Virus record (IMG/VR): IMGVR_UViG_2786546133_000001
Location: 25,636 to 89,635 of that record
Source: a virus
Taxonomy: Duplodnaviria; Caudoviricetes
Strand: one strand, 5' to 3'
Length of the DNA stretch: 64,000 bases
Below the pieces are notes generated by a model that worked only from the letters and a program-made list of their open reading frames with translations, was not told the origin of the DNA and searched no databases. How positions within the stretch are numbered: position 1 is the first letter of the stretch; the number at the start of each line of letters is the position of its first letter. The position numbers were made by a program, and so were the translations under genes. Below are positions 7,952-61,082 of this stretch, piece after piece.

Positions 7952-7968
7952 CCTGCCGGGCCGTCTCC

Positions 7969-8002: not shown

Positions 8003-8029
8003 TCAAGCGCTACCAGGGGATTCACGCTC

Positions 8030-9757: not shown

Positions 9758-10183
9758 ATGCAGGGCAAGTCACCAAAGCAGCGGCTCACCGCCGCCGAGC
9801 GCCGTAAGCAGGCGTTCGGCCTGTACCTCGCCGGCGTCGACCTCGGCACCATCGCGCAGCAGGTCGGCTACGCCAACGCGAGCAACGCCCACCGCGCGAT
9901 CAAACAGGCCATCGAGGAGAGCACCGTCCGCGAGCAGCTCGAACAGACACAGGCGTCCATGGACGACGCTCGGCGCCTGGCCATGCTGCGGTACGACCGG
10001 CTACAGGCGGCGTTCTGGGGAGCGGCGGTCAAGGACAAGGACCGGCACGCGGCGAACATCGTGCTTAAGTGCATGGCGGGCCGGGACAAGCTGACCGGCG
10101 TCGAGGCGCCCCGCAAGGTCGAGCACTCGGGCGAGGTCACCACGTACGAGATCATCGGCGTCGACCCGGACGACCTCGTATGA
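9758..10183 (+). CDS. Terminase small subunit (putative)
   Basis: N-terminal HTH, KVEHSG tail, directly upstream of terL. Confidence 0.75.
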   Translation: MQGKSPKQRLTAAERRKQAFGLYLAGVDLGTIAQQVGYANASNAHRAIKQAIEESTVREQLEQTQASMDDARRLAMLRYDRLQAAFWGAAVKDKDRHAANIVLKCMAGRDKLTGVEAPRKVEHSGEVTTYEIIGVDPDDLV

Positions 10184-35069: not shown

Positions 35070-35156
35070 TCTGGAGATCACGGCAGCGCCCCGGCGCTGC
35101 TGCTCGCCGACTGGTTATGGGCCGGGCACCGTTCACGACTTCGTGAGGGTGCCCGG
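35067..35156 (+). promoter_or_regulatory. Late leader element 5: TAATCT, hairpin, ACTGGTTATGGGCCGGG, long SD-occluding hairpin
   Basis: Motif 35110-35126; CCGGGCACC/GGTGCCCGG and TCACG/CGTGA stems; GTG 35156. Confidence 0.78.
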
Positions 35157-45952: not shown

Positions 45953-47056
45953 ATGGCGACGACATGCCGGGGTCTCGACGTCTCGGCGTACCAGGGCGCA
46001 CAGGACTGGGCCGCGCACAAGCGGGCCGGTGCCGTCTTCGCCTTCGCCAAGGCCAGCGAGGGCATGCGCTCGCGCGACGCCCGGTTCGCGATGCACGTGC
46101 AGGGCATCAAGGCGGCCGGGCTCGTGCCGGGCGGCTATCACTTCGCCTGGCCGAACCAGGACGTCGCGACCGAGGCGGCGAACTACATCGACGCCGTCAA
46201 GCCGCAGGCGGGCAAGGGCTTCGTCCACTGGCTCGACCTGGAGCGGTACAGCGACGGCCGGAACTACTCGGGCCGCTCGTCGGCGCAGATCAAGGCGTGG
46301 GCCACGGCGTGGATCGCCGCCGTGCAGAAGGCGTTCCCCGGGCAGCGCGTCGGCGTCTACACCAGCGCCGACGACATCGCGGCGGGCCGGGCACCCGACG
46401 GCGTGCCGCTGTGGTACCCCGCCTATCCGGGCGCGAGCGTCGACACCTACGCCGAGGCGGAGGCCCGACCGGCGCCGTCCCCGTCCGGGCGGAAGCCGCT
46501 GATCTGGCAGTTCACCAGCGACCCCGCCGGTAGTGGTCCGCGAATGGACCTGAACCTCGCGTACATGTCCGAGGCCGCGTTCCGGGCGTGGGCGGCCGGC
46601 GGCAGCACCGACGACGCGCCCGGCAAGGGAGGGGACGACGTGCCCGATTACGTGAACCTCGGGGTCGCGAAGCCGTACACGCTCGCGCCCGGGAAGTGGG
46701 ACTCGATCGAGTTCGCCACCGAGTGGAACGACACGGCGAGCGACCACGGGACCGGCGGCAGCGTCTTCGTGCGCGGTGCCGCCCGGTTCACCGGCAGCGT
46801 GTCCCTGGCGTTCAGCGGCCTGCCGGTCGGGCACGTCGTCCAGGCCCGCATGTCCGAGTACAACGGCGACGAGCTCGCGGCCGACCACTCGATACACGAG
46901 ATCGTCGGTACGCCCGGCGGGACGTACGCCGTCGTGCCGCTCGTGAAGCGGCTCGCGAAGGACCGCGGTATGCGGGTGCGGCTGCTGAACCAGTCGAACG
47001 TGCCGGTCACCATAACCAGCGCCGTCCTGACGGCGCTCGTCTTCAAGGAGTCCTGA
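45953..47056 (+). CDS. Endolysin, GH25 muramidase
   Basis: GLDVSAYQG, FAFAKASEG, GGYHF, WLDLE, IWQFTS, DLN. Confidence 0.9.
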   Translation: MATTCRGLDVSAYQGAQDWAAHKRAGAVFAFAKASEGMRSRDARFAMHVQGIKAAGLVPGGYHFAWPNQDVATEAANYIDAVKPQAGKGFVHWLDLERYSDGRNYSGRSSAQIKAWATAWIAAVQKAFPGQRVGVYTSADDIAAGRAPDGVPLWYPAYPGASVDTYAEAEARPAPSPSGRKPLIWQFTSDPAGSGPRMDLNLAYMSEAAFRAWAAGGSTDDAPGKGGDDVPDYVNLGVAKPYTLAPGKWDSIEFATEWNDTASDHGTGGSVFVRGAARFTGSVSLAFSGLPVGHVVQARMSEYNGDELAADHSIHEIVGTPGGTYAVVPLVKRLAKDRGMRVRLLNQSNVPVTITSAVLTALVFKES

Positions 47057-47351: not shown

Positions 47352-47665
47352 GCACGCCGCAGGACTCCAACGTGATCATCACGCCGGGGCAGATGTATCA
47401 GGAGGTACAGAACTTGTCGCGACTGGTCTCACGGATCGACGGGAAGCTCGACGGCATCCTGACCGACAACCGAGAGATCAAGGGCGACGTCTCCGACCAT
47501 GAGGCGCGTATCCGCGCGCTGGAACTGGGCGAGACCGAGCGGCAGAAGCGAGAAACGGCACGGATCGACGAGCTCGAAACGCGGCGGTGGCCGCTGCCCG
47601 CGCTCGGGGCCGTCGCCGCCCTCGTCGGCGCCGCCGGCGGCGTCGCCGGGTTCTTCCTGCGCTGA
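47348..47665 (+). CDS. Lysis-cassette coiled-coil membrane protein
   Basis: DHEARIRALE coiled coil plus C-terminal TM. Confidence 0.65.
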   Translation: MSTPQDSNVIITPGQMYQEVQNLSRLVSRIDGKLDGILTDNREIKGDVSDHEARIRALELGETERQKRETARIDELETRRWPLPALGAVAALVGAAGGVAGFFLR

Positions 47666-47677
47666 CGCCCTCCGACT

Positions 47678-47719
47678 GAGCCCCTCGTCGTCCCACCGCT
47701 CCGGGATGACGGGGGGCTC
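47678..47719 (+). terminator. Stem-loop after lysis cassette
   Basis: GAGCCCCTCGTCGTCCC pairs with GGGATGACGGGGGGCTC. Confidence 0.6.
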
Positions 47720-47735
47720 TGCCATGCTGACCGGC

Positions 47736-48125
47736 ATGGACGCACACGACGACCTCGAGGAACTGCTCGCGCGCTTGCCGCAGAAGTCGCCGCGCGAGCT
47801 GCTCGCCGAGGTCGAGGCGGCACGCCGGGCGGCCGAGGCGGCACCGTTGCCCGAGCCGAGCCTCATCCCGATGCCGACGTACCCGGACGACCGGCGGGGC
47901 CTGCTCGGCGGCACGATGCGCTTCGGGTGCCCGCTCGGCTGCGACTGGCACCACGACGAGCACCCAGGGCGCGACGCGGCGACAGAGCCGCTCGTCCTGC
48001 CCGCCGACCTCGACCGGCTCGACGAGGCGCTCACCGCGCACGCGAACGCGCGCGCCGAGGCCTTCCGGCTGCGGGTCGAGCAGGCGATCACGGACCACTT
48101 CGACCAGGCGCACCCCGGCCGCTGA
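47736..48125 (+). CDS. Hypothetical protein, probably leaderless
   Basis: CATGCT 7 nt before ATG; CPLGCDWHH. Confidence 0.6.
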   Translation: MDAHDDLEELLARLPQKSPRELLAEVEAARRAAEAAPLPEPSLIPMPTYPDDRRGLLGGTMRFGCPLGCDWHHDEHPGRDAATEPLVLPADLDRLDEALTAHANARAEAFRLRVEQAITDHFDQAHPGR

Positions 48126-48240
48126 CCGGTCGTGTCAGTGCCCCCGTCTACCGTGGTCGTGTCCTTTTCCGATTGCGTCTGGCTGCGCTGATCTTTGGAC
48201 CTTGCGCCCCCGTCCGGCTACCGGGCGGGGGCGGCATGCT

Positions 48241-48414
48241 TCACGCGGCCGGCTCGACGTCGCCGCGCGTGAGGTCCCCCCACAGGTCGAGCAGCAGCCG
48301 GTACCGCTCGGCGCGGGCCGGTGTCGCGGGCTCACCCATCAGGGCGCGTATACGGGCGTTGACGTCGTCCAGGGCAGGGCAGCGGCACCCGTTCGGGCAG
48401 GTCGAGGGGGACAC
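48241..48414 (-). CDS. Small protein divergent from XRE regulator
   Basis: VNARIRALM...RYRLLLDLW...VEPAA, a type often beside actinomycete XRE genes. Confidence 0.5.
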   Translation of the reverse strand: MSPSTCPNGCRCPALDDVNARIRALMGEPATPARAERYRLLLDLWGDLTRGDVEPAA

Positions 48415-48577
48415 GACGTCACGATACGAGCGAGCACTGACACGGCGACTGGCCTGGGTGAAAGTCGACGTGCGCGGGAAGGCGAAGAGCCCCACTCCCT
48501 GGGGAGCGGGGCTCGTTCGTGACCCACGAAGCCGACCGCGGGTACTGTTCTGGTGTCGAAGCAGAACAGGAGCCAGT

Positions 48578-49771
48578 ATGCACGCTCTGCCCGAAGACCA
48601 CACCGGCGTGCGAATGCGACGCCTTCGCCGCGAACGCCACCTCACCCAAAGGGCCGTCTCGGAGCTCTCCGGGATCCCGTACAGCACGTACACGAAAACG
48701 GAGCAAGGGGTCATCCCGGCCACCCCCCACGTGATCGCCGCGTTCGCCCGAGCGATCCGCGTCGAGGTGGCGACCGTCGTCGGCCAGCCCTACGCGACCG
48801 AGCTGCGCGCCGACGAACTCGACGTGCTGATAAGCCCCGTGCGCCATGCGCTCGACGTCTACGACCTCGGCCCCGATCCGGACATCCGCCCCCGCAGTCT
48901 CGTCGACCTGCACGACGACGCCGAAGCCCTGTGCGCGGCCGTCCGTGCCGGGGAGATCAAGCAGGCGGCGAGCAGCGTCGCCGGCCTGATCGAGGAGGCG
49001 ACGACGGCGGCGCACCTGAGCGGCAGCACCGAGGGATGGCTGACGCTCGCCTCGTTCTACCGCACCGCGTACGACGTCGCGGCCAAGCTCGGGTTTCCGG
49101 ATCTGGCTCAGCTGTCGCTCGCTCGGATGGAGTGGGCCGCGCAGCGTGGCTCGGACGCCGTGCTCGGCGGCATGTATCAGTACCTGCGGGCGCTGACGTA
49201 CTTGCGTGAGGGCAAGTACCGCACAGGGCAGCGTCTCGTCACCCTCGGACTGTCGGCGCTCCAGCAGGCCGACGAGAGCCGTGAGCGAGAGGTCGTCACG
49301 GGGCAACTCCACCTAGGGGCGGCCGTCATGGCCGGCCGGGCGCACAACAAGGCCGAAGCGCTCTCGCACCTCGGGGAGGCCGAGCGGATCGCCGGTACGA
49401 CCGGCGAATCGGTGCGTGTGCACTGGCTCGCTTTCGGCCCGACCAACGTGAAGGTGCATCGCGTGTCGGTGCTCGCCGAGCTCGACGAGTACAGCAAGGC
49501 GGTTGAGGTGACGTCGGACCTGCGGATCCCCGAGGACTGGCCCAAGTCGCGGACGAGCCACCACTACGCCGAGGTCGCTCGGGCGCAGATGTGGACGGGG
49601 AAGATCGACGAGTCGTTCAAGAGCCTGGTTCTCGCTCGGAAGACGGCGCCGCAGCAGGCGAAGTACCACCCGACGGTGCGGGAGACGTACGCCGGTCTTG
49701 AGGCCGCGTACCGACGTCTGCCCGAGTCGTTCCTGTCGTACGGCTCTTGGCTGAGCGCGGCGCACGGGTAG
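48578..49771 (+). CDS. XRE-family HTH regulator with TPR-like C-terminus
   Basis: RRERHLTQRAVSELSGI.YSTYTKTEQG; FGPTNVKVHRV; AGGAG RBS. Confidence 0.85.
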   Translation: MHALPEDHTGVRMRRLRRERHLTQRAVSELSGIPYSTYTKTEQGVIPATPHVIAAFARAIRVEVATVVGQPYATELRADELDVLISPVRHALDVYDLGPDPDIRPRSLVDLHDDAEALCAAVRAGEIKQAASSVAGLIEEATTAAHLSGSTEGWLTLASFYRTAYDVAAKLGFPDLAQLSLARMEWAAQRGSDAVLGGMYQYLRALTYLREGKYRTGQRLVTLGLSALQQADESREREVVTGQLHLGAAVMAGRAHNKAEALSHLGEAERIAGTTGESVRVHWLAFGPTNVKVHRVSVLAELDEYSKAVEVTSDLRIPEDWPKSRTSHHYAEVARAQMWTGKIDESFKSLVLARKTAPQQAKYHPTVRETYAGLEAAYRRLPESFLSYGSWLSAAHG

Positions 49772-49794
49772 CGCCTGACGCTCGGTCACCCCTT

Positions 49795-49830
49795 GGCCCC
49801 AACTATCAATAACTCTTGATAGTTGGGGCC
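49795..49830. promoter_or_regulatory. Perfect 15-bp inverted repeat (operator or terminator)
   Basis: GGCCCCAACTATCAA-TAACTC-TTGATAGTTGGGGCC. Confidence 0.7.
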
Positions 49831-50023
49831 TTGTCGTGCCGCCACGATGTCGGGACTGGACTTTCGACATGGAGCCGACCATGACGAACAACCGCTTCCC
49901 GGACCAGTGGCGCACCCGTCGACGCGCCGCAGCCGGTGCCCCCCTGCTACACCTCTTGCGTAGCGTCCGCAGGCCGAGCCCTGCACCGCTCCCGTTGTCG
50001 GCTCCGCGTTCCCATAAGAGGAC

Positions 50024-50503
50024 GTGATGACAACGACTGCTGTAGACCTGCGCCGCCCGGCCCCCCACCGCTGCGACGCCATGACCGCATCGTTCGCGGT
50101 CGTCCCCTGCAACGGCGAGCGCCTGCCCCGCGACGAGGACGCCCGACGCGTACGGGCAATGCGCCGTCTCACCGCCGCCCGGCTCAAGCTGGTCGGTCTG
50201 GAAGCGATGGCCGACGACGTACTGGTGATCGTCTCGGAGCTGCTGACGAACGCGCTCATGCACAGCGGCACTTGGGAGATCTCCCTGTCGCTCGTCGTGC
50301 AGGCCGACAGTCTGCGCATCGAGGTACGAGACGGCATGCCCGGCAAGGCCGAGGCGAAGCGGCCCGAGCCGTCGGACGAGTCCGGCCGGGGGCTGTGGCT
50401 GCTCGACGCCCTGGTAGCCGAACGCCGCGGCACGTGGGGAACACTCGACGCCGGCGCATGCACCTGGTGCACGCTGCCCTTAGCGACGGGAGCGCAGAAG
50501 TGA
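50024..50503 (+). CDS. HATPase_c ATP-binding protein (anti-sigma-like)
   Basis: VSELLTNALMH, IEVRDG, ESGRGLWLL; in-frame TTA at 50480. Confidence 0.85.
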   Translation: MMTTTAVDLRRPAPHRCDAMTASFAVVPCNGERLPRDEDARRVRAMRRLTAARLKLVGLEAMADDVLVIVSELLTNALMHSGTWEISLSLVVQADSLRIEVRDGMPGKAEAKRPEPSDESGRGLWLLDALVAERRGTWGTLDAGACTWCTLPLATGAQK

Positions 50504-50925
50504 GCGCGGCGGCCACCATCCCGCGATGGACACACCCCGTCCCCCCATGGACCCCCACGCTCGACACAGACGCCGTCACCAACGTCTTAGCGGCCGTTCG
50601 GCGCTGGACAGCCTTCGACGGCGACGCGCTGCTCGACGACGTGGGCGCGGTCATCGACGACGTGATCCCGCCCGAGGACGACGTCGAAGAACTCGCCGAG
50701 CGCATGCGCGGCCACCTGATGCGGCTCGTCGCTATCGCCGTCGCGAACCAGGCGGACGAGGACGACCAGGCCGCCGAACTGATCGAGCGGGCGCGCGAGG
50801 TGCGCGCCGAGGACATGCCCGGCGACCACTGGCGGGCCGTCGGACACCTGCGCCGGATGGCGTGGTCGGTGAACGAGTTACTGGAACGGCTGGGCGCCAT
50901 CCGATGCCTGAAGGAGTACGCGTGA
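50500..50925 (+). CDS. DUF6415-like helical protein
   Basis: ELAERMRGHLMRL...VGHLRRMAW..NELLERL; TTA at 50587 and 50878. Confidence 0.6.
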   Translation: MSAAATIPRWTHPVPPWTPTLDTDAVTNVLAAVRRWTAFDGDALLDDVGAVIDDVIPPEDDVEELAERMRGHLMRLVAIAVANQADEDDQAAELIERAREVRAEDMPGDHWRAVGHLRRMAWSVNELLERLGAIRCLKEYA

Positions 50926-51611
50926 TCCAGTTTCCCCGCGCCGCCGTGAGCAGTTCGAGCGAGCAGGGCGTGATCCCTTTCATCACCCAGCGCAAGGGCG
51001 AAGAGGCCGCATCGGCGAACCTCTACCTCCTGCGCCGCAGCGGCACCAACCTTCTCCGCCTGTTCTACAGCGACGAAGACCCCCGAGACCGGCCGCTGCG
51101 CTACATGCTGTGGGCCCGGTGCACGTTCAGCATGGACGACGACGGGATGCCTGTCGGCGAGCCGCAATGGAAGTTCGTGCACCCGTACCGGCAGATGGTG
51201 ACGATGCTCGGAAACCGCTGTCAGATCTGCACACGACCGGCGCGGACCCCGCTCGGGATGATCTTCCTTGCCGGGCCGAAGGACTACGACCCTGCCTCGC
51301 CGGTCATCTCGACGTGGCAGCCGCCCGTATGCGCTCGGCACGTCCGCACGGCGGCGAAACTGTGCCCGCACATGGAGGAGAACCCGACGGTCTTCCTCGC
51401 GGGGAGTGCCCCTCTGTACGGCGTCGTGGGGACCGTCTACGGCTTCGGGCCGAACGGGACCGTCGAAGTCGTCGAGACGCCGGACGAGCCCGTGAAGTTC
51501 GACGACCCGCGCGCTCCACGAACGCTCGCCTCGCAGCTCGTACGGCGCCTGTCGTCGTTCCGGGTCCTGGACATGGACGAACTCCTCGCCGAGCTGGCGG
51601 TCGCCGCATGA
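50922..51611 (+). CDS. Conserved actinomycete hypothetical protein (Zn-binding)
   Basis: VHPYRQ...RCQIC...PPVCARH...LCPH. Confidence 0.7.
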   Translation: MIQFPRAAVSSSSEQGVIPFITQRKGEEAASANLYLLRRSGTNLLRLFYSDEDPRDRPLRYMLWARCTFSMDDDGMPVGEPQWKFVHPYRQMVTMLGNRCQICTRPARTPLGMIFLAGPKDYDPASPVISTWQPPVCARHVRTAAKLCPHMEENPTVFLAGSAPLYGVVGTVYGFGPNGTVEVVETPDEPVKFDDPRAPRTLASQLVRRLSSFRVLDMDELLAELAVAA

Positions 51612-52012
51612 ACGGCGTCAGCACGAGGATGCGCGAGGCATGCCAAAACGCGCTGTGGAACCCTGCGCCGACCCCGAAGGAGGTCGCGCAACTGACCTCC
51701 GAACTTGAGGGCTACGTCCGGGAGCTCAGCCCGCAGTTGGCCGCGCTCGTGCCGCGTATGGGCGAGAACATGCAATCGCTGACGGCGGTTGTGCTGCGTC
51801 ACGTCGACGAGGTCCTCGACGAGCGGGCGCCGCGCGTGAAGGCGGCGACCCGGCTGCAAGACCTCGGCGTCGTCGTACGCGCCGTGCTGGCGGTGCTCGA
51901 CCGCCCCGGCGACCTCGCTCCGGGCGACGACGAGGAGGCGGAGGCCGTGGCCTGTGATCCCGGCGGCTGGCTGCTCGTCGTGCCGCGGGCCGAAGACTCC
52001 CGAACGCGCTAG
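51608..52012 (+). CDS. Hypothetical helical protein (DUF6415-like)
   Basis: ATGA coupling; LTSELEGYVREL. Confidence 0.55.
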   Translation: MNGVSTRMREACQNALWNPAPTPKEVAQLTSELEGYVRELSPQLAALVPRMGENMQSLTAVVLRHVDEVLDERAPRVKAATRLQDLGVVVRAVLAVLDRPGDLAPGDDEEAEAVACDPGGWLLVVPRAEDSRTR

Positions 52013-52328
52013 GCCCGCGCCTTCGGGATTCAGGCTCCGGCTCTCCCGCTTCCACTCCCCCGGCGGTGGAGAGCCGGAGCCGCACCGAGACGCCGGCGGG
52101 GTCGGGGTGCTGCGCCTCGCCTCCGGCCTCGTCGGCAGCAACGCCCGTCCCGGGTCGCCGGACCGCATCCATACGGCGGCTCGGGGCGGGTCTACGACTC
52201 CCGCGCGGCGACGGCCAGGCAAGACGGGCCGCGCGGGAAAGCCGGCCCCTCGACGTCCCCCTGGCGGGGGGCCGGCTCTTGCCCTCGCTCGTGCGCTCGT
52301 ACAGAACCCCGTGGAAGGGAATCGCGCC

Positions 52329-53438
52329 GTGCATACCCTCATCGCCGCACCGTTCGGCGGTACCAACCTCGTCCTGCGTCCGGGAAGCCCGAAGGCTATC
52401 CGGGTCGGCAGTGGCAAGTTCAGTGAGATCTCGACGTCGGTAGCCGAGCAGCAGGCGGTGCCGTCCTGGCTCGCCAGTGCCGCGGCGACGCAGTGGGGCG
52501 TAGACCTGCACGACAGCCCGGCCGCGGAGACGATCCTCATCCGGTCGGCCGGCCCGTACCAGTTCAGCCGCGCGACCGTGGAACTCAACCTCGGCTGTGA
52601 CTACGACTGCGTGATGTGCTACCTCGGCGAGAAGCGATTCGAGAGCCTGCCCCTCGCCGACTGGCGGAAGGTCATGGAGCTTCTCCGCGACGCCGGGGTG
52701 ATCTGGCTCCAGCTCACCGGCGGCGAGCCGCTCGTCGACCCGCACTTCCCCGAGGTGTACGCGTACGCGTACGAGCTGGGCATGCAGCTTGAGATCTTGT
52801 CGAACGGATCGCGGCTGCACAAGGATCACGTCCGCCGGCTGCTCGTCGAGCGGCCGCCCTACAAGATGTCGCTCAGCGTGTACGGCGCGACAGAGGAGAC
52901 GTACGACACGGTCACGCGGAACCATGGCGCTTTCGGCCGGTTCCGCCAGGGGGTCGACGCGGCGATCGCCGCCGGCCTGAACATCGACCTGAGCCTGATC
53001 ATCGTGCGGGAGAACGAGCACGAGGTCGACGCGATGCGCGAGTGGGCGAAGAGTCTCGGTCTGCCGTTCCGCGAGTACGCGAACATCTCGCCGACGATCC
53101 ACGGCACCGCCGAGCCGCTGCCGTCGCAGTCGCCACAGCACCTCACCAACCGGGCCCCGTTCACCGGCTGCCCGGCCGGGGTGACGTTCTTCCACGTCAA
53201 CCCGTTCGGCAAGGCGTCAATCTGCAAGGTCGGACGCGAGCCGAACATCGACCTTCTCGCCGAAGGCGTCGAAGGTCTGTCCCGACTCGGTGACATCGCC
53301 GAGTCCCTCATGCTTCGCACTGGAGGATGCAGCGGCTGCAAGCTCTCCGACTCCTGTCGGGTATGCAGGCCGATGGCGAAGGTCTTCCAGCAAGCGAAGG
53401 CACCACTACACCACTACTGTCAACACGGAAGCAGGTGA
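52329..53438 (+). CDS. Radical SAM/SPASM peptide maturase
   Basis: CDYDCVMC, LTGGEP, C-terminal CPAG...ICK...CSGC...CRVC...YC; GAAGGGA RBS before GTG 52329. Confidence 0.88.
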   Translation: MHTLIAAPFGGTNLVLRPGSPKAIRVGSGKFSEISTSVAEQQAVPSWLASAAATQWGVDLHDSPAAETILIRSAGPYQFSRATVELNLGCDYDCVMCYLGEKRFESLPLADWRKVMELLRDAGVIWLQLTGGEPLVDPHFPEVYAYAYELGMQLEILSNGSRLHKDHVRRLLVERPPYKMSLSVYGATEETYDTVTRNHGAFGRFRQGVDAAIAAGLNIDLSLIIVRENEHEVDAMREWAKSLGLPFREYANISPTIHGTAEPLPSQSPQHLTNRAPFTGCPAGVTFFHVNPFGKASICKVGREPNIDLLAEGVEGLSRLGDIAESLMLRTGGCSGCKLSDSCRVCRPMAKVFQQAKAPLHHYCQHGSR

Positions 53439-53444
53439 CCTTTC

Positions 53445-53585
53445 ATGGCCGCTGTGATGGTCGACATCGCCCCGATCCCCGCCACGGTCCCGGAAGACCG
53501 AGACGCGGTCGTGCTCGTCGAGGACGTCGAGGCGCTGACCGCCGACACGCTGCCGGGCTGCGGCGACGACAACCCGTACAACTGA
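53445..53585 (+). CDS. Putative RiPP precursor peptide, 46 aa (not in ORF track)
   Basis: MAAVMVDIAPIPATVPEDRDAVVLVEDVEALTADTLPGCGDDNPYN; AGGTG RBS; immediately after rSAM. Confidence 0.75.
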   Translation: MAAVMVDIAPIPATVPEDRDAVVLVEDVEALTADTLPGCGDDNPYN

Positions 53586-53597
53586 CCTACCCGTAAG

Positions 53598-53634
53598 GGC
53601 GAGGTGGGACGGCGCTCCGCCGTCCCACCTCGCC
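53598..53634 (+). terminator. Perfect 17-bp stem-loop after precursor
   Basis: GGCGAGGTGGGACGGCG-CTC-CGCCGTCCCACCTCGCC. Confidence 0.7.
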
Positions 53635-53677
53635 GCCCCTCAGCACGTCCGACCCATCTGCCTACTGGAGCACTTCC

Positions 53678-54478
53678 TTGCCGACGCACCGCCTGACCGA
53701 AATTCCCGCTGACGCGCTCAAGGCGATCGAAGCCGTCGCCGGGCCCGTGCTCGACGTCGAGATGCTCTCGGCCGGCTACAACAGCGAGATCGCCGCTCGC
53801 CTACACCTCGCCGGAGGCACGGTTTTCGTGAAGGGGCTGGGCCAAGACCACCCGCGGGTGTGGACGCAGCAGCGCGAGGCCGACGTCAACCCGCATACCG
53901 GCGGCCTTGCCCCCGCCCTGCGGTGGCACATCCAGCAAGGCGGATGGAACCTGCTCGGGTTCGAGGACCTCGGCGGCAGGCACGCCGACTACTCGCCGGG
54001 CTCCCCTGACCTGGAACTCGTCCTTCAGGCAATGTGGCGCCTGGCATCGCTCGTCGCGCCGTCGTCGGTCGACCTCAAGACGATGCCGGCGCGGATGGGC
54101 GGGCACGTCGGCGACCCGGAAGAGGCCCGCCTGTTCGGCGGGGCGAGCCTGCTGCACACCGATTGGAATCCGGACAACGTCCTGATCGTCGACGGCATGG
54201 CGCGGCTGGTCGACTGGGCGTGGGCCTCGCGCGGCGCTTCCTGGGTCGATCCGGCGCTGTGGGTGATCTGGCTGCTCGCCTCGGGGCACGACGTGTCGAG
54301 CGCTGAGGAACTGGCCGGACGGCATCCGGCCTGGAGCGGCACGCCGGTCCGCGCCGTCGACGCGTTCGCGCAGGCTCAAGCCCGGCTGTGGGAGGCGATC
54401 GCGAGCGCCGACCGGCCGGACGAGTGGACGCACAGGCTGCATGCGGCCGCACGGACCTGGGCTGAGCACCGGCAATGA
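53678..54478 (+). CDS. Aminoglycoside-phosphotransferase-like kinase
   Basis: VFVK, HTDWNPDNVL, LVDWAW; GGAG RBS, TTG start. Confidence 0.8.
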   Translation: MPTHRLTEIPADALKAIEAVAGPVLDVEMLSAGYNSEIAARLHLAGGTVFVKGLGQDHPRVWTQQREADVNPHTGGLAPALRWHIQQGGWNLLGFEDLGGRHADYSPGSPDLELVLQAMWRLASLVAPSSVDLKTMPARMGGHVGDPEEARLFGGASLLHTDWNPDNVLIVDGMARLVDWAWASRGASWVDPALWVIWLLASGHDVSSAEELAGRHPAWSGTPVRAVDAFAQAQARLWEAIASADRPDEWTHRLHAAARTWAEHRQ

Positions 54479-54718
54479 TGGGCATGCGCTGGTGAAGCTC
54501 CGGCCCGTCCGCTCCCCCCGTGGCGGGCGGGCCGGTGACGTCGTCTCTGCCGGTGTCGCCCCACGGTTGGGCGATCCTCAAATGGGGGGACAGCGAGTGT
54601 CCGGCAGAGGGCCCGTGACCCGCAGTCGAATCGCGAAGAACAAACGGCCGCGTCGGCTGCCATCCGGTCCGATCCCGGACACGGGCGTTCCCCCCCTTTG
54701 CACGCTCAGGAGTGACTC

Positions 54719-55201
54719 GTGAACCAGGACCAGGGCGCCGCCGTCGAAGTGCGGTCCGCCGACGAGCGGGACGAGTGGGAAGCGTCCTGGTACCGCGAGC
54801 GACTGGCGGACCCGTTGCTCGTCGCCGCCGGGGTGGTGGTCGTCGTCGACCGGCTCGGCTATCTCGCGGTGCCGGTCGGCGGCGAGCGGCGCGGCGGGTA
54901 CATCAGCGTCAGCGACGCGGCGGCGGTCATGCCGCTACGCCAGGCGCTCGACGGGCGCGACGGCTTCCCCGCGTTGCGGGTGCGCTGGTCGACGTGCCCG
55001 AGCGCCTGTCACGTCGTCGAGTGGGGCGAGCCGGCGCCTGAGACGGACGACCACGAGGCACTTGGCCGGGTCTACGGATACAGCGACGCGGCGGTCCGCG
55101 AGTTCGCCGACCAGCACCCGCCGCCCCCGTCGGGCCCCGCAGTCACCGAGCGGCGACCTTCCCGGCTCGGTAGGCGCGCATCGTCTTCGCGCCGCGCCTG
55201 A
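54719..55201 (+). CDS. DUF6302-like hypothetical protein
   Basis: LAVPVGGERRGGY...GFPALRVRWS...VVEWGE...LGRVYGYS; AGGAG RBS. Confidence 0.6.
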   Translation: MNQDQGAAVEVRSADERDEWEASWYRERLADPLLVAAGVVVVVDRLGYLAVPVGGERRGGYISVSDAAAVMPLRQALDGRDGFPALRVRWSTCPSACHVVEWGEPAPETDDHEALGRVYGYSDAAVREFADQHPPPPSGPAVTERRPSRLGRRASSSRRA

Positions 55202-55714
55202 CGCCGTCCTCTTCGGCGCACATCTTGTGAGCCGGCTTGCCCTGCTCGTCGCGCAGGTAAGTAAGCCGCTCGCAGTACCGGCACGGCCGCTCGTCCCTCC
55301 CCCAGTGCGAGCGGGCGGTCCAGTCGAGGAGCTGGCCCGGCGCGAGTTCGGGCAGCGGCGGCGGCGGTTTTCTCTGCCTGGGCGGCATGGATGGCCGTCC
55401 TCCTTTTGGCGGCGAGCAGCGCGCCGCCGGGCGCGCCGCTGCAACCTGCGCCGAAGTACCCGGCGTTCGTCCTCGTCGAGGCCGCCCCACACGCCGTCGC
55501 GCTCGTGCCGGTCGAGCGAGTGCCGCAGGCACTGCTCGATGACGGGGCAGCGAGCGCATACGGCTTTCGCTTCGTTCGCGACGAGCTGTGCCTTGGCCCG
55601 GCCGAAGTCCTTCGGGAAGAAGATCGCCGGGTCTTCCTCGCGGCAGGCGGCGTCGTCCCTCCAGTCGTTCGGCCGGGGCAGGGTGTCGGGCGCGTAGCGG
55701 CTCGGTCGGCCCAT
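54935..55714 (-). CDS. whiB: WhiB-family transcription factor (domain in about 55400-55714; stop unusually distal)
   Basis: WRDDAAC...FFP...AKAVCARCPVIEQC...GVWGG. Confidence 0.8.
   Translation of the reverse strand: MGRPSRYAPDTLPRPNDWRDDAACREEDPAIFFPKDFGRAKAQLVANEAKAVCARCPVIEQCLRHSLDRHERDGVWGGLDEDERRVLRRRLQRRARRRAARRQKEDGHPCRPGRENRRRRCPNSRRASSSTGPPARTGGGTSGRAGTASGLLTCATSRASRLTRCAPKRTASGAARRRCAPTEPGRSPLGDCGARRGRRVLVGELADRRVAVSVDPAKCLVVVRLRRRLAPLDDVTGARARRPAHPQRGEAVAPVERLA
55143..55388 (-). CDS. Small Zn-binding phage protein
   Basis: AAGGAGG RBS; PCRYC...HKMCAE. Confidence 0.65.
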   Translation of the reverse strand: MPPRQRKPPPPLPELAPGQLLDWTARSHWGRDERPCRYCERLTYLRDEQGKPAHKMCAEEDGVRRGAKTMRAYRAGKVAAR

Positions 55715-56007
55715 CAGCCGTCGGCCTGCTCGGCGCCCTCGGCGGGCGCCTGGGGCGCCTGTGCGATGGTGAGCGGCATCGTGTCCCAGTCGCCGCCCGT
55801 CGGCGCCTGTGGGGGCGTCTGGGCGTCGTCGCCGGTCGTCGTGGCGGTCTGCCGCGGCAGCCGGTGCGTGCCGGTCGGGCGCAGCGACCGCCAGGCGGCG
55901 ACGGCGAGCGCGGCGAGCAGCAGCGGCCCCCACCACCAGAACACCGACAGCAGCGCGTCGACGGCCAGGCCGAGCATGAGCGCGGTCGCCTTGAGTGCCT
56001 CGATCAC
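55714..56007 (-). CDS. Membrane protein
   Basis: Hydrophobic N-terminus; coupled to neighbours. Confidence 0.6.
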   Translation of the reverse strand: MIEALKATALMLGLAVDALLSVFWWWGPLLLAALAVAAWRSLRPTGTHRLPRQTATTTGDDAQTPPQAPTGGDWDTMPLTIAQAPQAPAEGAEQADG

Positions 56008-56258: not shown

Positions 56259-56713
56259 CACGAGCCGCCGTTCTCGCGGGCCTTGCGCTGCGCGCGCAGA
56301 ACGCGGTCTTCGAGGTGAGCGCCGGCGACGCAGTGCTCGCGCTCGCACGCGGGCGCGTGCGTGATGTTCCCCTCGGGCTCGCGCTGGTAGTGGACGCGGA
56401 ACACCGCCCGGTACGCCGTCTCTGCGTGACTGCGCCACCACAACACCGGCGTGCCTTGCGGGTGCCGGCTGCCGGTCCACTCGGCGTGACCGTCGTCGAC
56501 GGGCTTGACCCGCCGGGCGATCGCCTCTTCCCACGTCTTTTCGGGCACGCGCCGCCCGCGCTGGAAGGTGTCGAGCCCGAGTTGCTGCCTCACCTCGTCG
56601 ACGCGCCCCCAGGGCACGCCGAGCGCTCGCGCGACGGACAGGTTCGACACCTCGGGCGACGTCAGGTGCCGGGCTATCTGCTCGTCGGTGACCTCGGCGA
56701 TCGCCGTCGTCAT
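56258..56713 (-). CDS. HTH plus degenerate HNH-like protein
   Basis: VARALGV; HAEWTG...AYRAVF...ACEREHCVAGAHL. Confidence 0.6.
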   Translation of the reverse strand: MTTAIAEVTDEQIARHLTSPEVSNLSVARALGVPWGRVDEVRQQLGLDTFQRGRRVPEKTWEEAIARRVKPVDDGHAEWTGSRHPQGTPVLWWRSHAETAYRAVFRVHYQREPEGNITHAPACEREHCVAGAHLEDRVLRAQRKARENGGS

Positions 56714-57288
56714 CGCTTCACCTCCGGCCAAGTGACCTTGTCGAGCCGCTCGCGCTGCGCCTGCGGCATCGGGAACAGGGGGGCGCCCAGGAAGTCGAGG
56801 CCGGCGCACCAGAGCCAGAACGCGTCAAGCTGGTTGTCGTCGGGGAACTCCCGGCCGGCTCGCTTCAGGGCGGCGATCGCCATCGGGACCTTGTCGCCGC
56901 TGCCCTTGCCGGTCGCGTACGCCTTGAGCGTCGCCGGGGTGATCAGCGCGTACGGGACGCCCGCCTTGTTCAGGACGGACCGCACGACGCCGTGAACCAT
57001 GGCGATCGGCTTCGCGGCGTGGCTGTTCTGCGGGATGTCTTCGAGGACGGCGAGCGTCGGCACGGGGCCGAGGTCGCCGCCGCCGATCGCGATCTCTGCG
57101 GCCGTCTCGATCTGCAACAGCCGCCGGTCGCCGTCCTTCTGCCGCGTCCTCACGGTGGCCGTGGAACCGTCCCGGTAGCAGATGCCGGGCGCGGTGAGGG
57201 ACAGGTCGAAGGCGACGACGGACAGGCCGGGGACGGCCCCCGCCGTCGGTGCGGCGGGGGCGTCCTCGAACAGGGTCGGCTCGGTCAC
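56710..57288 (-). CDS. RuvC-like Holliday junction resolvase
   Basis: AFDLSLTAPG, VLED, PATLKAYATGKG, DDNQLDA. Confidence 0.8.
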   Translation of the reverse strand: MTEPTLFEDAPAAPTAGAVPGLSVVAFDLSLTAPGICYRDGSTATVRTRQKDGDRRLLQIETAAEIAIGGGDLGPVPTLAVLEDIPQNSHAAKPIAMVHGVVRSVLNKAGVPYALITPATLKAYATGKGSGDKVPMAIAALKRAGREFPDDNQLDAFWLWCAGLDFLGAPLFPMPQAQRERLDKVTWPEVKR

Positions 57289-58992: not shown

Positions 58993-59976
58993 TTACCGCC
59001 TCTTGTTCCGGTCGCGGTTGCGGCGCCGCGGCTTGACCCGGCCGCGACCGGCGCTCGCCTTCCGCGGCAGGGTCTGCACGGGGACGTCCTGCGACGCCTC
59101 GGCCGCCGCGGCGGCGCGTCGGGCGTCGGCCTCCAGCGAGGCCGTCTCGGGGTCGAACACGGCGAGGATCTGCGGGCGCCCGTCCTCGGCGGCCTGCTCG
59201 ACGGCGACGAGCGCGCGCAGCTCGGCCGACTGCGGGACCAGCTTCGCCATGCGGCGTACGGCCGTCTTCACGTGCATGTCGTCGAAGTGCGTATGCCAGA
59301 ACGAATCCTTCGCGCCGGTCTGCTCGGCCCGCTGGTACGCCTTGCTGTACTCGTCGCGGACCGCCTCGGCGTCGTCGCGGGTGACGATCGCGACCGCCGA
59401 GCGGGCGCCGCCGTCGAGCCACGCGAAGGCGTACGCGAACAGCGGCTTCCCCCGCTGCTCGGCGGACGCGAGGATCTGCGGCTTGTGCGTGAAGTCGAGC
59501 GGCGCGGGCGCGGTCGGCTCGTAGGTCCACTCGTCGCCCTCGTAGACCAGGCCGGTCACGACGGACTTCACCAGGCCCGAGCGGTACATCAGGTCGACGT
59601 AACCGAGGTACGTCGGGATGAACACCGCGATCCGGTCGTCAGCGGTGATGACCGCCTGGCGGCCGTCGGGGATGAGCCCGAAGCGGGCGCACGTGATGAC
59701 GGCCTGGAGCACGCTCGCGGGGGTGCAGGTACGCAGCTTCGGCAGGACGGGCAGCAGCGCGGCGAAGAACAGGTCGGCGCTGATGTGCTTCGGCAGCGCC
59801 TTCTCGACGTCGGCCCGGTAGCGGCCGAGCCACTCGCCGACCGCCGCCGACTGCTCGTCGTGACCGGCGGGGGTTTCCTCGGCGCCGTCGGCGCGGCTGT
59901 GCTCGGCGTCCTCGCCGGTCGTCACGCCGCCCGCCGTCGCCGCCTTCACGCGGTCCTTGAGAGTTGCCAGGGCCAT
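58993..59976 (-). CDS. recT: RecT-family ssDNA annealing protein
   Basis: CTPASVL...FGLIPDG...YLGYVDLMYRSG...VYEGDE...MHVKTAVRR. Confidence 0.88.
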   Translation of the reverse strand: MALATLKDRVKAATAGGVTTGEDAEHSRADGAEETPAGHDEQSAAVGEWLGRYRADVEKALPKHISADLFFAALLPVLPKLRTCTPASVLQAVITCARFGLIPDGRQAVITADDRIAVFIPTYLGYVDLMYRSGLVKSVVTGLVYEGDEWTYEPTAPAPLDFTHKPQILASAEQRGKPLFAYAFAWLDGGARSAVAIVTRDDAEAVRDEYSKAYQRAEQTGAKDSFWHTHFDDMHVKTAVRRMAKLVPQSAELRALVAVEQAAEDGRPQILAVFDPETASLEADARRAAAAAEASQDVPVQTLPRKASAGRGRVKPRRRNRDRNKRR

Positions 59977-59978
59977 GG

Positions 59979-61082
59979 TCACAGCTCCTTCGCGGGGACG
60001 CGCAGCACGCGAGCGCGGTACTGCTCGTACGTCTTGGACTGCTCGGTCTTGAGCCGCTCGACGTCGAGGACCTCGACGGTCGTCGTGTACTGCGCGGCGA
60101 GCTCGGGCTGTTCCTCCGCGAAGCGCTTCGCGGCGAACGTGCCGTTCTGCTTCCACGACCAGGCGACGGACTTCCCGACCTTCGCGACCTCGGCGGACTC
60201 CGTGATCAGCCGCATCTCGTTCTCGACGGTGGTCAGTTCGGTGTCGAGCGTCTTGATCCGCTCGCGCAGGTCCGCGCGCCGCGCGCGCAGCTCCTTCGCC
60301 TTGCCGAGGTCGACGTCGACGACGCCGCCTTCCTTGGCCTGCCACAGCCGGCCGAGGAGTTCCTTCGTCGCGTCCAGTCCGTCGGCGGGCGGCGGGAAGC
60401 CCTCGACGACGTGCCGCTGATACCAGTCGCCGCAGTAGCCGACGAGGTACGCGATCATCTCCTCGTCGCGCTCGATGCGGTGGTACCGCAGCTTGTTACC
60501 GCCGACGAGCGCGGCGACCCACGCGTACGACCAGCCGCCGACGGCCATGTACCAGTGCGCCTGAAGGGCGGGGGCGTCGGGAACGCCGTCCTCCCACTCG
60601 TCGAGCTGGTACTCGCTGCGGTTCTTCAGCTCGACGGGGGCGACGACCTCGCCCGTCTCGGGGTCGAGGGCGTACCGGTCGACGTTCGCCCTCATCCACT
60701 CGTGCTCGGTGTGCACGAGCGTGCCCGGAGTCGGAACGGCCGGAATGCCCGAGCGCTTCGTGAACAGGTAGGCGACGAAGTCCTCGATGTCGCGGCCGAC
60801 CTCGGCGTACTCGCTCAGGGCGGCGTCCGCCTCGACGGCGCGGCCGTGCTTGGCCTCGAAGACGTGGCGCGGTCCCTGGTACTTGTCGAGCCCGAGGATC
60901 TTCGCGACGTCCGACCCGCCGATGCCGCTACGGCGCGCGGCGTGCCACTGCTCGTCGGTCGCGTCGGCGGGCAGCAGCAGGCGGGCCGTCGGGGCGCCGA
61001 AGGCGAGGTCGCGCGGGGAACCGGGCGCGGCCTTCTCGATCGCTGCGGGAGTCCAGGGCTGTTCAGTAGTCTGCGTGGACAA
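59979..61082 (-). CDS. YqaJ-like viral recombinase exonuclease
   Basis: WHAARRSGIGGSD, RANVD, ELKN, QAHWYM. Confidence 0.88.
   Translation of the reverse strand: MSTQTTEQPWTPAAIEKAAPGSPRDLAFGAPTARLLLPADATDEQWHAARRSGIGGSDVAKILGLDKYQGPRHVFEAKHGRAVEADAALSEYAEVGRDIEDFVAYLFTKRSGIPAVPTPGTLVHTEHEWMRANVDRYALDPETGEVVAPVELKNRSEYQLDEWEDGVPDAPALQAHWYMAVGGWSYAWVAALVGGNKLRYHRIERDEEMIAYLVGYCGDWYQRHVVEGFPPPADGLDATKELLGRLWQAKEGGVVDVDLGKAKELRARRADLRERIKTLDTELTTVENEMRLITESAEVAKVGKSVAWSWKQNGTFAAKRFAEEQPELAAQYTTTVEVLDVERLKTEQSKTYEQYRARVLRVPAKEL

Follow-up and report, generated by a model that had tools for sequence, protein, structure and literature searches.

A phage-borne cassette of a radical SAM/SPASM enzyme, a short peptide and an APH-fold kinase is a probable uncharacterised RiPP system of actinomycetes

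Several described systems combine a radical SAM (rSAM) enzyme carrying a SPASM-type region with a short precursor peptide. In the streptide (SuiA/SuiB) and sporulation killing factor (SkfA/SkfB) systems, a short precursor gene adjoins the gene for an enzyme built from an N-terminal domain, a radical SAM barrel and an auxiliary-cluster domain; these systems form Lys-Trp and Cys-Met links, respectively, and neither is known to have a kinase. The ranthipeptide and sactipeptide maturases (PapB, CteB, AlbA, and StsB) are also rSAM/SPASM enzymes and act on Cys-containing cores, and PapB links Cys-x3-Asp sites by a thioether. In the mycofactocin (MftA/MftB/MftC) and PQQ (PqqA/PqqD/PqqE) pathways, an rSAM/SPASM enzyme works on the extreme C-terminus of a short aromatic-ended peptide. 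Kinases of the APH fold that act on a peptide are found in class V lanthipeptide and thioamitide clusters, where they phosphorylate Ser/Thr and a partner lyase then carries out the elimination. Streptomycin 6-kinase confers self-resistance by phosphorylating the antibiotic. According to the main text of a survey of temperate-phage clusters, prophage-borne biosynthetic clusters are mostly bacteriocins, and a Streptomyces phage mentioned there carries a type 3 PKS (10.1101/2020.10.01.322628).

The window analysed here is a 64,000-nucleotide stretch of a tailed-phage record (IMG/VR IMGVR_UViG_2786546133_000001, positions 25,636 to 89,635). Positions 52329-54478 hold an rSAM gene, an ORF of 46 aa, a 17-bp hairpin and the gene of an APH-fold kinase, all on the (+) strand. 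An earlier note, made from the sequence alone, had described a RiPP-like cluster of exactly these elements at this place, and all of them were found there:

52329..53438 (+), radical SAM/SPASM peptide maturase, 369 aa, GTG start (Pfam PF04055, homologues, AlphaFold2 model, structural matches)
52329..52553 (+), N-terminal domain, residues 1-75, three strands then three helices, predicted to be a peptide-recognition (RRE-like) domain (predicted structure)
52596..52619 (+), CX3CX2C motif (C90, C94, C97) for the SAM-binding 4Fe-4S cluster (invariant in 40/40 aligned homologues)
53169..53420 (+), SPASM-type region, C281-x12-G-x4-C299 ... C334-x2-C337-x5-C343-x2-C346 ... C364 (seven Cys invariant in 40/40)
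53445..53585 (+), precursor peptide gene, 46 aa and stop, 6 nt downstream of the end of the rSAM gene (conserved ORF)
53508..53540 (+), leader motif VVLVEDVEALT, residues 22-32, alternately hydrophobic and acidic (peptide alignment and position tables)
53556..53582 (+), core GCGDDNPYN, residues 38-46, with Cys39, Asp41, Asp42, Asn43, Pro44 and Tyr45 (peptide alignment and position tables)
53598..53634 (+), perfect 17-bp stem with a 3-nt loop between precursor and kinase genes (folding against shuffles)
53678..54478 (+), APH-fold kinase, 266 aa, TTG start (alignment, model, Foldseek)

The domain architecture, the fold matches and the near-universal three-gene synteny support the description as a RiPP-like cluster. 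We put the probability at roughly 70% that the maturase, precursor and kinase genes form an uncharacterised and widespread RiPP cassette of actinomycetes, which is carried here as cargo of a Streptomyces temperate phage. Judging from sequence relationships, its product is probably a cross-linked, tyrosine-phosphorylated peptide, of which we infer both the chemistry and the biological role.

The cassette lies inside a prophage. Genes for terminase, portal, capsid, tape measure and endolysin precede it, genes for RuvC, RecT and RecE follow it, and the record is classed as a provirus, in agreement with the prophage origin that had been proposed. The endolysin gene and the RuvC/RecT/RecE genes border it on the two sides. 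It is not specific to prophages, as most copies examined were in chromosomal contexts with variable neighbours. The rSAM enzyme was present in 90 of 401 sampled Streptomycetaceae genomes (E ≤ 1e-60), corresponding to at least 22% of the sampled species. The cassette was also found in other actinomycetes, in the isolated phage Success, where it corresponds to gp3-gp2-gp1, and in 11 other IMG/VR viral contigs, flanked by genes for tape measure, tail, capsid, portal, integrase or primase. As small peptide-type prophage cargo it resembles the clusters of the survey, which in its main text does not describe it and does not use the term "radical SAM" (10.1101/2020.10.01.322628).

The enzyme belongs to the radical SAM superfamily, since the CX3CX2C motif is invariant and the Pfam Radical_SAM model (PF04055) matched with 54.7 bits (cut-off 29.5). 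Full-length homologues with 53-73% identity numbered more than 100, and the GTG start fits them, M1, H2 and L4 being nearly invariant there. The AlphaFold2 model had a mean pLDDT of 84. SPASM motifs follow the pattern CX9-15GX4C, gap, CX2CX5CX3C, gap, C and serve two auxiliary clusters. All seven cysteines of this pattern are present in the enzyme, with x2 rather than x3 in the last spacing, and structure comparison aligned the region with the SPASM domains of SuiB, anSME and PqqE. The Pfam SPASM model did not match the protein at E ≤ 1, so that SPASM membership rests on the cysteine motif and the predicted fold. Within the SPASM part of the model, pLDDT was below 50 at residues 253-268 and 334-340.

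The N-terminal segment, noted earlier as a short beta-beta-beta-alpha element, takes the predicted form of three strands (residues 4-9, 12-16, and 23-26) followed by helices (28-39, 46-56, and 65-68), all with pLDDT above 90 in the AlphaFold2 model. SuiB and SkfB aligned from model residue 1-3, whereas enzymes without an N-terminal peptide-binding domain aligned only from about residue 75. The segment is thus predicted to be an RRE-like peptide-recognition domain, RREs being leader-binding, winged-helix-like domains with three strands and three helices; the Pfam PqqD (RRE) model had no match to the protein at E ≤ 1, and the assignment therefore rests on the predicted structure. The best whole-length structural matches, with Foldseek also run, were SuiB (Z 21.5) and SkfB (Z 21.4), and the match to the peptide-bound structure of SuiB covered 323 residues with an rmsd of 4.6. 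The cassette shares with both systems the adjoining precursor gene and, as predicted, the domain plan, but the two enzymes have only 13-20% sequence identity to the one described here, and the core peptides are unrelated.

All scores against described NCBIfam families fell below the family cut-offs. The best match was the mycofactocin maturase MftC (TIGR03962; 69.4 bits, cut-off 265), and the others included PqqE (TIGR02109; 47.7 bits, cut-off 381.35), AlbA (NF012164; 43.3 bits, cut-off 850), StsB (NF045574; 43.4 bits, cut-off 625), SkfB (TIGR04403; 39.1 bits, cut-off 300) and prokaryotic viperin (NF038283; 39.5 bits, cut-off 180). The PADLOC pVip models, one of which is for kinase-associated viperins, matched with 49.5 and 40.8 bits, and viperins were among the fold matches to residues 76-324. 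It could be argued from these matches that the enzyme modifies nucleotides as viperins do, working with a nucleotide kinase beside an incidental small ORF. This is highly improbable, because the pVip matches span only residues 89-232, within the radical SAM core common to both kinds of enzyme, the viperin score is far from its cut-off, and the small ORF is conserved. The enzyme also has the seven-Cys SPASM region and the peptide-binding-like N-terminal domain, neither of which viperins are known to have.

The precursor peptide has an acidic leader and ends in LPGCGDDNPYN. The earlier note had made its proposal depend on conservation of this peptide beside homologous enzymes, and conservation was indeed found: a homologous short ORF followed the enzyme gene in 95 of 97 related loci, the remaining two being cut by contig ends, and the same ORF was directly downstream in 19/19 and 30/30 loci of two smaller sets. 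Cys39, Asp42, Asn43 and Pro44 were invariant among 20 aligned peptides, and position tables built on 89 unique tails gave the C-terminal pattern Cys...[DE]-D-[NQ]-P-[Y/F/H] over variable leaders. Codons varied synonymously at the conserved core residues; for example, the invariant proline was encoded by CCG in 53, CCC in 32, CCT in 2 and CCA in 2 of 91 unique DNA tails. In each of 20 loci examined, the ATG or GTG start had a Shine-Dalgarno-like sequence before it. This conservation and synteny show that the ORF is a genuine gene linked to the enzyme. A variable leader, a conserved core and a precursor co-inherited with its enzyme, which are general marks of RiPP clusters, were all seen in the 95 of 97 loci and the 20-peptide alignment. 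The peptide matched only seven database proteins, of which all the named ones are called "hypothetical" or "uncharacterized", and its homologue in phage Success, gp2, is likewise annotated as a hypothetical protein.

Two types of core were observed, a single-Cys type with Cys-x-Asp spacing and a two-Cys type whose second Cys stands three residues before the conserved Asp. The spacing of the two-Cys cores matches the Cys-x3-Asp sites of PapB, and CteB was among the fold matches of the enzyme. In contrast to the ranthipeptide and sactipeptide families, the single-Cys cores have Cys-x-Asp, the cores hold one or two cysteines rather than many, and a kinase or GNAT acetyltransferase gene is linked. 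The difference in Cys-acidic spacing between the two core types fits awkwardly with one fixed thioether ring.

The core also has an aromatic residue at or near its C-terminus and, four positions earlier, an acidic one. In this it resembles PqqA, which has Glu-x3-Tyr, and MftA, which ends in Cys-Gly-Val-Tyr. This resemblance, together with MftC as the best NCBIfam match, the PqqE score and PqqE among the fold matches, would suit a cassette whose product is a redox cofactor or small molecule derived from the peptide, similar to mycofactocin or PQQ, the cross-linked C-terminal residues being excised by host peptidases. We consider such a product improbable. Both scores fall well short of the family cut-offs (265 and 381 bits), and the cassette has neither a linked peptidase, flavoenzyme, glycosyltransferase or partner dehydrogenase nor the downstream pathway genes. 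Those pathways use a separate recognition protein, whereas the predicted recognition domain here is part of the enzyme, and no quinone could arise from the Phe or His that the aromatic position tolerates. A patchy distribution (90/401) and carriage by phages are, moreover, unusual for cofactor pathways.

Between the precursor and kinase genes, the hairpin folded better than expected by chance (z = -4.75; 0/200 shuffles folded as well). No T-run follows it, and no T-run terminator was found. Of 84 loci, 58 had an uninterrupted stem of at least 9 bp no further than 110 nt from the peptide stop. A scan of positions 51500-55300 for consensus promoters and terminators gave no match, which says little on Streptomyces promoters. 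The hairpin probably raises the amount of precursor transcript over that of the kinase.

The kinase model had a pLDDT of 95, and its best Foldseek matches were APH(4)-Ia, YtaA, APH(3')-IIa, CcrZ, and the macrolide and amicoumacin kinases (TM 0.5-0.64). K52, E67, H160-x-D162-x4-N167 and D179 are conserved; in 34 sequences K52, H160, N167 and D179 were invariant and D162 nearly so. The protein thus has the ATP-binding Lys, the H-x-D-x4-N loop and the metal-binding Asp of the APH/choline kinase fold family. The Pfam APH model (PF01636) did not match the window kinase at E ≤ 1, a precomputed PF01636 match was present in 4 of 120 homologues among the matches listed, a profile search of PDB sequences gave APH(4)-Ia only at E = 0.011, and a sequence search of PDB chains gave E = 0.09 or weaker. 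PADLOC had no match for the kinase or seven neighbours. The homologues are named "aminoglycoside phosphotransferase" at NCBI.

The presence of the kinase is associated with the aromatic residue of the core. All 77 loci with a kinase have Tyr at this position, whereas the 17 loci without one have Phe (11), His (4) or Tyr (2) and mostly lie beside a GNAT acetyltransferase gene. None of the 15 Phe or His cores is accompanied by a kinase. The kinase adjoins the rSAM-peptide pair on the same strand, downstream, in 77 of 79 scorable Tyr loci, either directly or, in a few loci, after a GNAT gene or a gap of ~0.8-1.1 kb. On the rSAM tree, four changes between Tyr and non-Tyr coincide with four changes of kinase presence, and the kinase tree largely mirrors the rSAM tree. 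These changes amount to three (on well-supported branches) or four independent contrasts, a number with which the sign test (p = 0.25) cannot reach significance. In five GNAT-only loci the available sequence ends too early for a kinase following the GNAT gene to be excluded. The earlier suggestion that the peptide is possibly phosphorylated keeps its conditional form and gains indirect support from the restriction of the kinase to Tyr-bearing cores.

Two stricter rules were rejected. Kinase and GNAT are not mutually exclusive, as three loci (L068, L078, and L093) carry both. Nor does Tyr require the kinase: among the Tyr loci with enough sequence, only L097 and L099, which are near-identical viral contigs, combine Tyr with a GNAT gene and no kinase. 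Unlinked kinase paralogues were seen in two of four genomes with only Phe/His cores.

A possible mechanism can be outlined from these features. The 46-aa peptide would be the substrate of the rSAM enzyme, and the hydrophobic-acidic motif of its leader may dock on the N-terminal domain, as the predicted fold suggests. The radical SAM core, with the two SPASM auxiliary Fe-S clusters, would then abstract hydrogen in the C-terminal core, giving at least one cross-link. By analogy with ranthipeptides and sactipeptides, the likeliest guess would be a thioether that joins the conserved Cys and a carbon within the Asp/Asn stretch; alternatively, a carbon-carbon link such as that made by PqqE could connect the aromatic ring with the acidic residue at position -4. 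The APH-fold kinase may subsequently phosphorylate the hydroxyl of the core Tyr. This target is proposed because loci with the kinase always have Tyr as their aromatic residue, and because in single-Cys cores such as GCGDDNPYN, which have no Ser or Thr, Tyr is the only hydroxyl-bearing residue. The cassette would share a peptide-directed APH-fold kinase with class V lanthipeptide and thioamitide clusters, but it has no lyase, its single-Cys cores are free of Ser/Thr, and Tyr covaries with the kinase. Phosphorylation, or acetylation by GNAT in the Phe/His variants, possibly keeps the product harmless in its producer as a pro-drug or means of self-resistance. Such a self-protective role would explain the persistence of kinases without the enzyme and peptide in other genomes.

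Stand-alone kinases were in fact found, and a confinement of the kinase to the cassette was rejected. Eight high-scoring kinase loci were examined from genomes without a listed rSAM match; six had neither rSAM nor peptide, and one more had a peptide remnant only. Their contexts are unrelated and they are nested among the cassette kinases; the kinase tree needs six changes. Kinase homologues occurred in 130 of 401 genomes at E ≤ 1e-50, compared with 90 of 401 for the rSAM enzyme at E ≤ 1e-60, although 4-6 candidates per genome were scored, which makes genome-level co-occurrence unreliable. One genome listed without the enzyme (G007) carries the full cassette. The window kinase shares 81% identity with one of the stand-alone kinases (L105), but only 51-58% with those of sister cassettes.

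The wider occurrence of the kinase, its unrelated stand-alone contexts, the closeness of the window kinase to one of them and a fold family dominated by antibiotic kinases are what would be expected if the kinase were a phosphotransferase for housekeeping or small-molecule resistance that just happens to accompany the rSAM-peptide pair, leaving the peptide unphosphorylated. We regard this as rather unlikely, given the fixed position beside the rSAM-peptide pair in 77 of 79 scorable Tyr loci, the largely mirrored trees and the absence of the kinase from all 15 loci with Phe or His cores. The closeness to L105 does suggest that the window kinase may work independently of the peptide. With phosphorylation of the peptide retained as the preferred reading, the stand-alone copies suggest a resistance function, which would affect how "aminoglycoside phosphotransferase" annotations are read. 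The amicoumacin self-resistance kinase AmiN, a fold match, is likewise an APH-fold enzyme beside a biosynthetic pathway, and stand-alone copies in non-producers would fit a comparable role. Unlike the cassette, however, AmiN and streptomycin 6-kinase act on substrates that are not ribosomal peptides, and the cassette has no linked phosphatase or exporter for reactivation or release.

A more far-reaching reading, which we hold only tentatively and think doubtful as a whole, is that the cassette makes a new class of radical-SAM-cross-linked peptide toxin, traded as a weapon by temperate actinophages and chromosomes. The kinase would then be the immunity gene, masking the Tyr hydroxyl by phosphorylation so that a pro-drug is held in the producer; stand-alone kinases would be resistance genes against the toxin of neighbours; and the repeated switches from Tyr to Phe or His, with GNAT replacing the kinase, would be escapes from kinase-based resistance. 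If so, a peptide-toxin arms race could be read in the genomes. As had been noted before, no protease or transporter is nearby, and the Pfam scan of 10 neighbouring ORFs found neither. Without a linked protease or exporter, the freeing and release of the mature product lack an explanation. Release of a toxin by phage lysis or hyphal death would account for the missing exporter.

The cassette family matched no curated family in the NCBIfam, Pfam and PADLOC scans, and no description of it was found in the literature searched, in line with the earlier view that it is not a characterised class; supplementary tables of large rSAM-RiPP surveys may list the family. The core-motif strings GDDNPY, DDNPY, DDQPY and DDNPF gave no relevant literature match, and the searched portions of reviews do not mention an rSAM cassette with a kinase. 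If confirmed, the cassette would add a RiPP family for which no description was found, with a distinctive core motif and possible Tyr phosphorylation by an antibiotic-kinase-like enzyme, a pairing likewise not found in the literature searched. For natural-product chemists it is a compact, easily expressed three-gene target, and the naturally occurring Tyr, Phe and His cores, accompanied by kinase, GNAT or neither, provide built-in controls for both tailoring enzymes. For phage biologists it is a cargo module that recurs and that can be tested directly for any advantage it gives a lysogen.

Upstream of the cassette lies an accessory block (47499..52012, +), and one further gene stands downstream of the kinase; all are given as context only:

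47499-48125 (+), ORF of unknown function
48614-49771 (+), XRE/HTH_31 regulator (Pfam)
50024-50503 (+), HATPase_c_2 anti-sigma-like protein (Pfam)
50500-50925 (+), DUF6415 protein (Pfam)
50922-51611 (+), ORF of unknown function
51608-52012 (+), DUF6415 protein (Pfam)
54719..55201 (+), DUF6302 protein (Pfam PF19819, 129.5 bits)

The upstream genes are not conserved with the cassette as a set, and the DUF6302 gene was not found beside it in the other loci of a 19-locus set. The regulators among them could indicate that the product is a signalling peptide rather than a toxin and acts through the adjacent XRE and anti-sigma-like proteins to set phage lysogeny or the development of the host. This is quite improbable, since the regulators vary by locus and are missing from many, no export signal or transporter is present, and kinases kept without the enzyme and peptide would be left unexplained. 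Such regulator genes are also very abundant in these genomes, and some co-location is expected. What speaks for a signal, besides the XRE/HTH_31 and HATPase_c_2 genes of the window, is the recurrence of similar genes elsewhere: HATPase_c_2 homologues were near the cassette in 6 of 19 and 7 of 30 loci of two locus sets, HTH genes adjoin it in phage Success, and HTH_31+DUF5753 and DUF6879 genes precede the GNAT-type cassettes.

The three adjacent plus-strand genes encoding a radical SAM enzyme (rSAM), a 46-aa peptide, and a kinase are most safely described as an uncharacterised RiPP cassette, in which the peptide would be the substrate of the rSAM. Searches of NCBIfam, Pfam, and PADLOC returned no family for the enzyme or the peptide, nor for the trio as a whole. 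No description of the cassette was found in the published literature, although an unnamed entry in the supplements of large surveys is possible. Its features in the window are as follows.

52329-53438, plus strand, rSAM, with Radical_SAM as its sole Pfam match
53445-53585, plus strand, precursor peptide, starting 6 nt past the rSAM stop
53598-53634, hairpin with a perfect 17-bp stem, after the peptide gene
53678-54478, plus strand, kinase

A peptide ORF was located downstream of the rSAM gene in all 19 full-length loci from named genomes, in all 30 Streptomycetaceae loci, and in 95 of the 97 non-duplicate loci, viral ones included; the other two were both cut by contig ends. The counts exclude places fetched twice (L025, L063, and L086), an unpublished genome (L055), the window's own record (L024), and N-terminal fragments or a distant relative (L020–L022). 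The C-terminal core was of two types: 35 unique single-Cys tails followed the pattern G-C-[G/N/S]-[D/E/N]-D-N-P-[Y/F]-[N/R/Q/K or none], and 54 unique two-Cys tails followed C-[S/N]-C-x-[A/S/V]-[G/S/D]-[D/E]-D-[N/Q]-P-[Y/F/H], with the aromatic residue as the last residue. The leader was variable except for a hydrophobic-acidic motif about 10–20 residues ahead of the Cys. Synonymous codons for the invariant peptide residues differed between loci, and a ribosome-binding-like sequence preceded the peptide in the 20 loci inspected. In 58 of 84 loci, the stop codon of the peptide was followed by a stem of at least nine uninterrupted pairs (median, 14 pairs). Judging from these sequence comparisons, the peptide is a conserved gene. 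It is almost never annotated, being represented by seven database proteins, of which every named one is “hypothetical” or “uncharacterized”; in the isolated Streptomyces phage Success, it is annotated as gp2, hypothetical.

All specific NCBIfam models scored far below cut-off for the rSAM, the best being MftC (69 bits against a cut-off of 265). The CX3CX2C motif (C90, C94, and C97) and seven C-terminal Cys with SPASM-like spacing were invariant in an alignment of 40 sequences. In the AlphaFold2 model (pLDDT 84), an N-terminal domain of three strands and then three helices precedes a radical SAM barrel and a Cys-rich C-terminal domain; this last domain was less confident, as is expected when its clusters are absent. 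SkfB, BlsE, SuiB, and CteB ranked at the top of the Foldseek search. Upon re-alignment, SuiB with bound peptide (Z 21.5) and SkfB (Z 21.4) matched the model from residue 1–3 to the end, whereas BlsE, anSME, MoaA, PqqE, and viperins matched it only from about residue 75. The modelled enzyme is thus built like a RiPP maturase to which a predicted leader-recognition domain is fused. In Streptomyces sp. NBC_00019, two rSAM fragments with identical scores (L020 and L021) covered residues 4–103 only, with 51% identity; one was situated no more than about 17 kb from the end of a plasmid and the other no more than that from a chromosome end, possibly as remnants within terminal repeats.

A thioether from the conserved Cys to the Asp/Asn stretch is the favoured putative cross-link, in view of that Cys and of the precedents from SPASM enzymes. 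The acidic residue four positions before the aromatic one makes a PqqE-like carbon–carbon link a possible alternative.

The window (G + C content, 71%) comes from an 89.6-kb IMG/VR record, classed as a provirus, of which it forms the 3′ 64 kb. The following phage genes were identified by PHROG matches.

10180-11664, terminase
13317-15053, portal
15285-18662, MuF/protease fusion
19250-20923, major capsid protein
35156-39454, tape measure protein
45953-47056, endolysin
56710-57288, minus strand, RuvC-like resolvase
58993-59982, minus strand, RecT
59979-61082, minus strand, RecE-like exonuclease

Between the endolysin and the minus-strand early genes (RuvC-like, RecT, and RecE-like) sits a plus-strand accessory block with an XRE/HTH_31 regulator, an anti-sigma-like HATPase_c_2 gene, two DUF6415 genes, one unknown gene, the cassette trio, and DUF6302. 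Flanked in this way by endolysin and early phage genes, the cassette therefore lies within the phage genome and not in the host flank.

Several neighbouring genes were also recorded. The 229-aa protein encoded ahead of the rSAM gene (50922-51611, plus strand), the unknown one of the accessory block, had no Pfam or PADLOC match; a single weak relative (30% identity; E = 7e-14) adjoins the cassette in locus L045 (3228-3830). A gene for a WhiB-like transcription factor (54935-55717, minus strand; WhiB domain at about 55454-55663; Pfam Whib, 85.6 bits) follows closely after the cassette block, on the opposite strand, and its open frame overruns the DUF6302 gene at its 3′ end, so that the stop given, or else the overlap, is provisional. 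HATPase_c_2 genes, which have a high background, lay at most a few kb from the cassette in 6 of 19 and 7 of 30 loci (L001–L003, L010, L015, L019, L034, L035, L038, L039, L043, L052, and L054), often with XRE/HTH_31 regulators alongside; in the window, the two genes together span 48614-50503. In the virion region, a large, repetitive 1164-aa protein (24737-28231, plus strand) matched PHROG 18824 (unknown function) very strongly over six stretches and had no Pfam match above cut-off.

An rSAM match at E ≤ 1e-60 was present in 90 of 401 Streptomycetaceae species genomes, and in 12 of 401 and 25 of 301 genomes from the class and the order of genome G002, respectively. These counts are lower bounds, as genome G007, listed as negative, has a full cassette. 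Neighbours outside the three cassette genes differed between loci. Phage carriage of the cassette recurs: phage Success encodes the rSAM (gp3), peptide (gp2), and kinase (gp1) at the left end of its genome, and in eleven IMG/VR contigs the cassette adjoins tape measure, tail, capsid, portal, integrase, or primase genes. In the rSAM tree (79 rows, quick IQ-TREE), the window's copy was nested among chromosomal Streptomyces copies, the nearest with 72% identity, and the Success copy fell in a different clade on a long branch. One IMG/VR contig (L101) carries the cassette between a major head protein gene and a portal/MuF-like gene, an unusual place for cargo.

The aromatic residue of the core covaried with the presence of the kinase or of an acetyltransferase (GNAT) gene, the latter assigned with moderate Pfam backing only, as listed below.

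Core residue and accompanying enzyme genes among scored loci
Tyr, kinase: 74 loci
Tyr, kinase and GNAT: 3 loci
Tyr, GNAT without kinase: 2 loci (L097 and L099, near-identical viral contigs)
Phe, GNAT: 9 loci
His, GNAT: 4 loci
Phe, neither: 2 loci

A kinase was never found with a Phe or His core among these loci. Phe is present in L096, which is closely related to L097 and L099. Four Tyr/non-Tyr changes and four changes in kinase presence were placed on the same branches of the rSAM tree. Every independent Tyr/kinase pair (three on well-supported branches, four on all) ran in the same direction, and this result was not significant (p = 0.25) because such pairs were too few. In single-Cys cores, Tyr is the sole hydroxyl-bearing residue. 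We infer that the kinase would need the Tyr hydroxyl and, most simply, would phosphorylate Tyr; the evidence for this phosphorylation is the covariation itself. GNAT-type cassettes had DUF6879 and HTH_31+DUF5753 genes upstream. The kinase lay 0.8–1.1 kb past the peptide in L008 (about 7236-8227), L045, and L050, compared with the usual 0.2 kb or so, and therefore something has been inserted between them; the rSAM match in L008 was split into two segments.

The kinase had no significant Pfam or NCBIfam match and a weak sub-threshold match to Pfam TCAD9 (E = 0.0086). Its model (pLDDT 95) adopted the aminoglycoside-phosphotransferase fold, and the ATP-binding Lys, the H-x-D-x4-N catalytic loop, and the metal-binding Asp were retained in the alignment. 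NCBI names its homologues “aminoglycoside phosphotransferase.”

Kinase homologues were present in 130 of 401 Streptomycetaceae genomes (E ≤ 1e-50). Among eight high-scoring kinase loci fetched from genomes for which no rSAM match was listed, one held a full cassette, one a peptide remnant without rSAM, and six neither rSAM nor peptide. The neighbours of these six were unrelated (amino acid permease, glutamine-synthetase-like gene, Ser/Thr kinases, and NUDIX gene). Stand-alone copies were scattered among cassette kinases in the kinase tree, requiring six changes, and one was 81% identical to the window's kinase. Unlinked kinase paralogues also occurred in two of the four genomes whose cassettes are only of the Phe/His type. 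This pattern fits a gene with its own use, such as resistance to the product, and fits less well an enzyme solely tailoring the neighbouring peptide. Together with the enzyme families and the lack of an exporter, the retention of kinases without rSAM and peptide suggests a self-protection (pro-drug) role for the kinase and GNAT.

Among the fetched loci, L105 (3149-4805; genome G165) carries two tandem kinase paralogues, which share 33% and 81% identity with the kinase of the window, without rSAM or peptide and adjoining amino acid permease, glutamine-synthetase-like, and peptidase S51 genes. In L111 (genome G169), a peptide-like remnant at about 3780-3903, with a degenerate leader and the cassette core motif at its end, immediately precedes a kinase gene that has no rSAM in its vicinity, and this locus looks like a decaying cassette.
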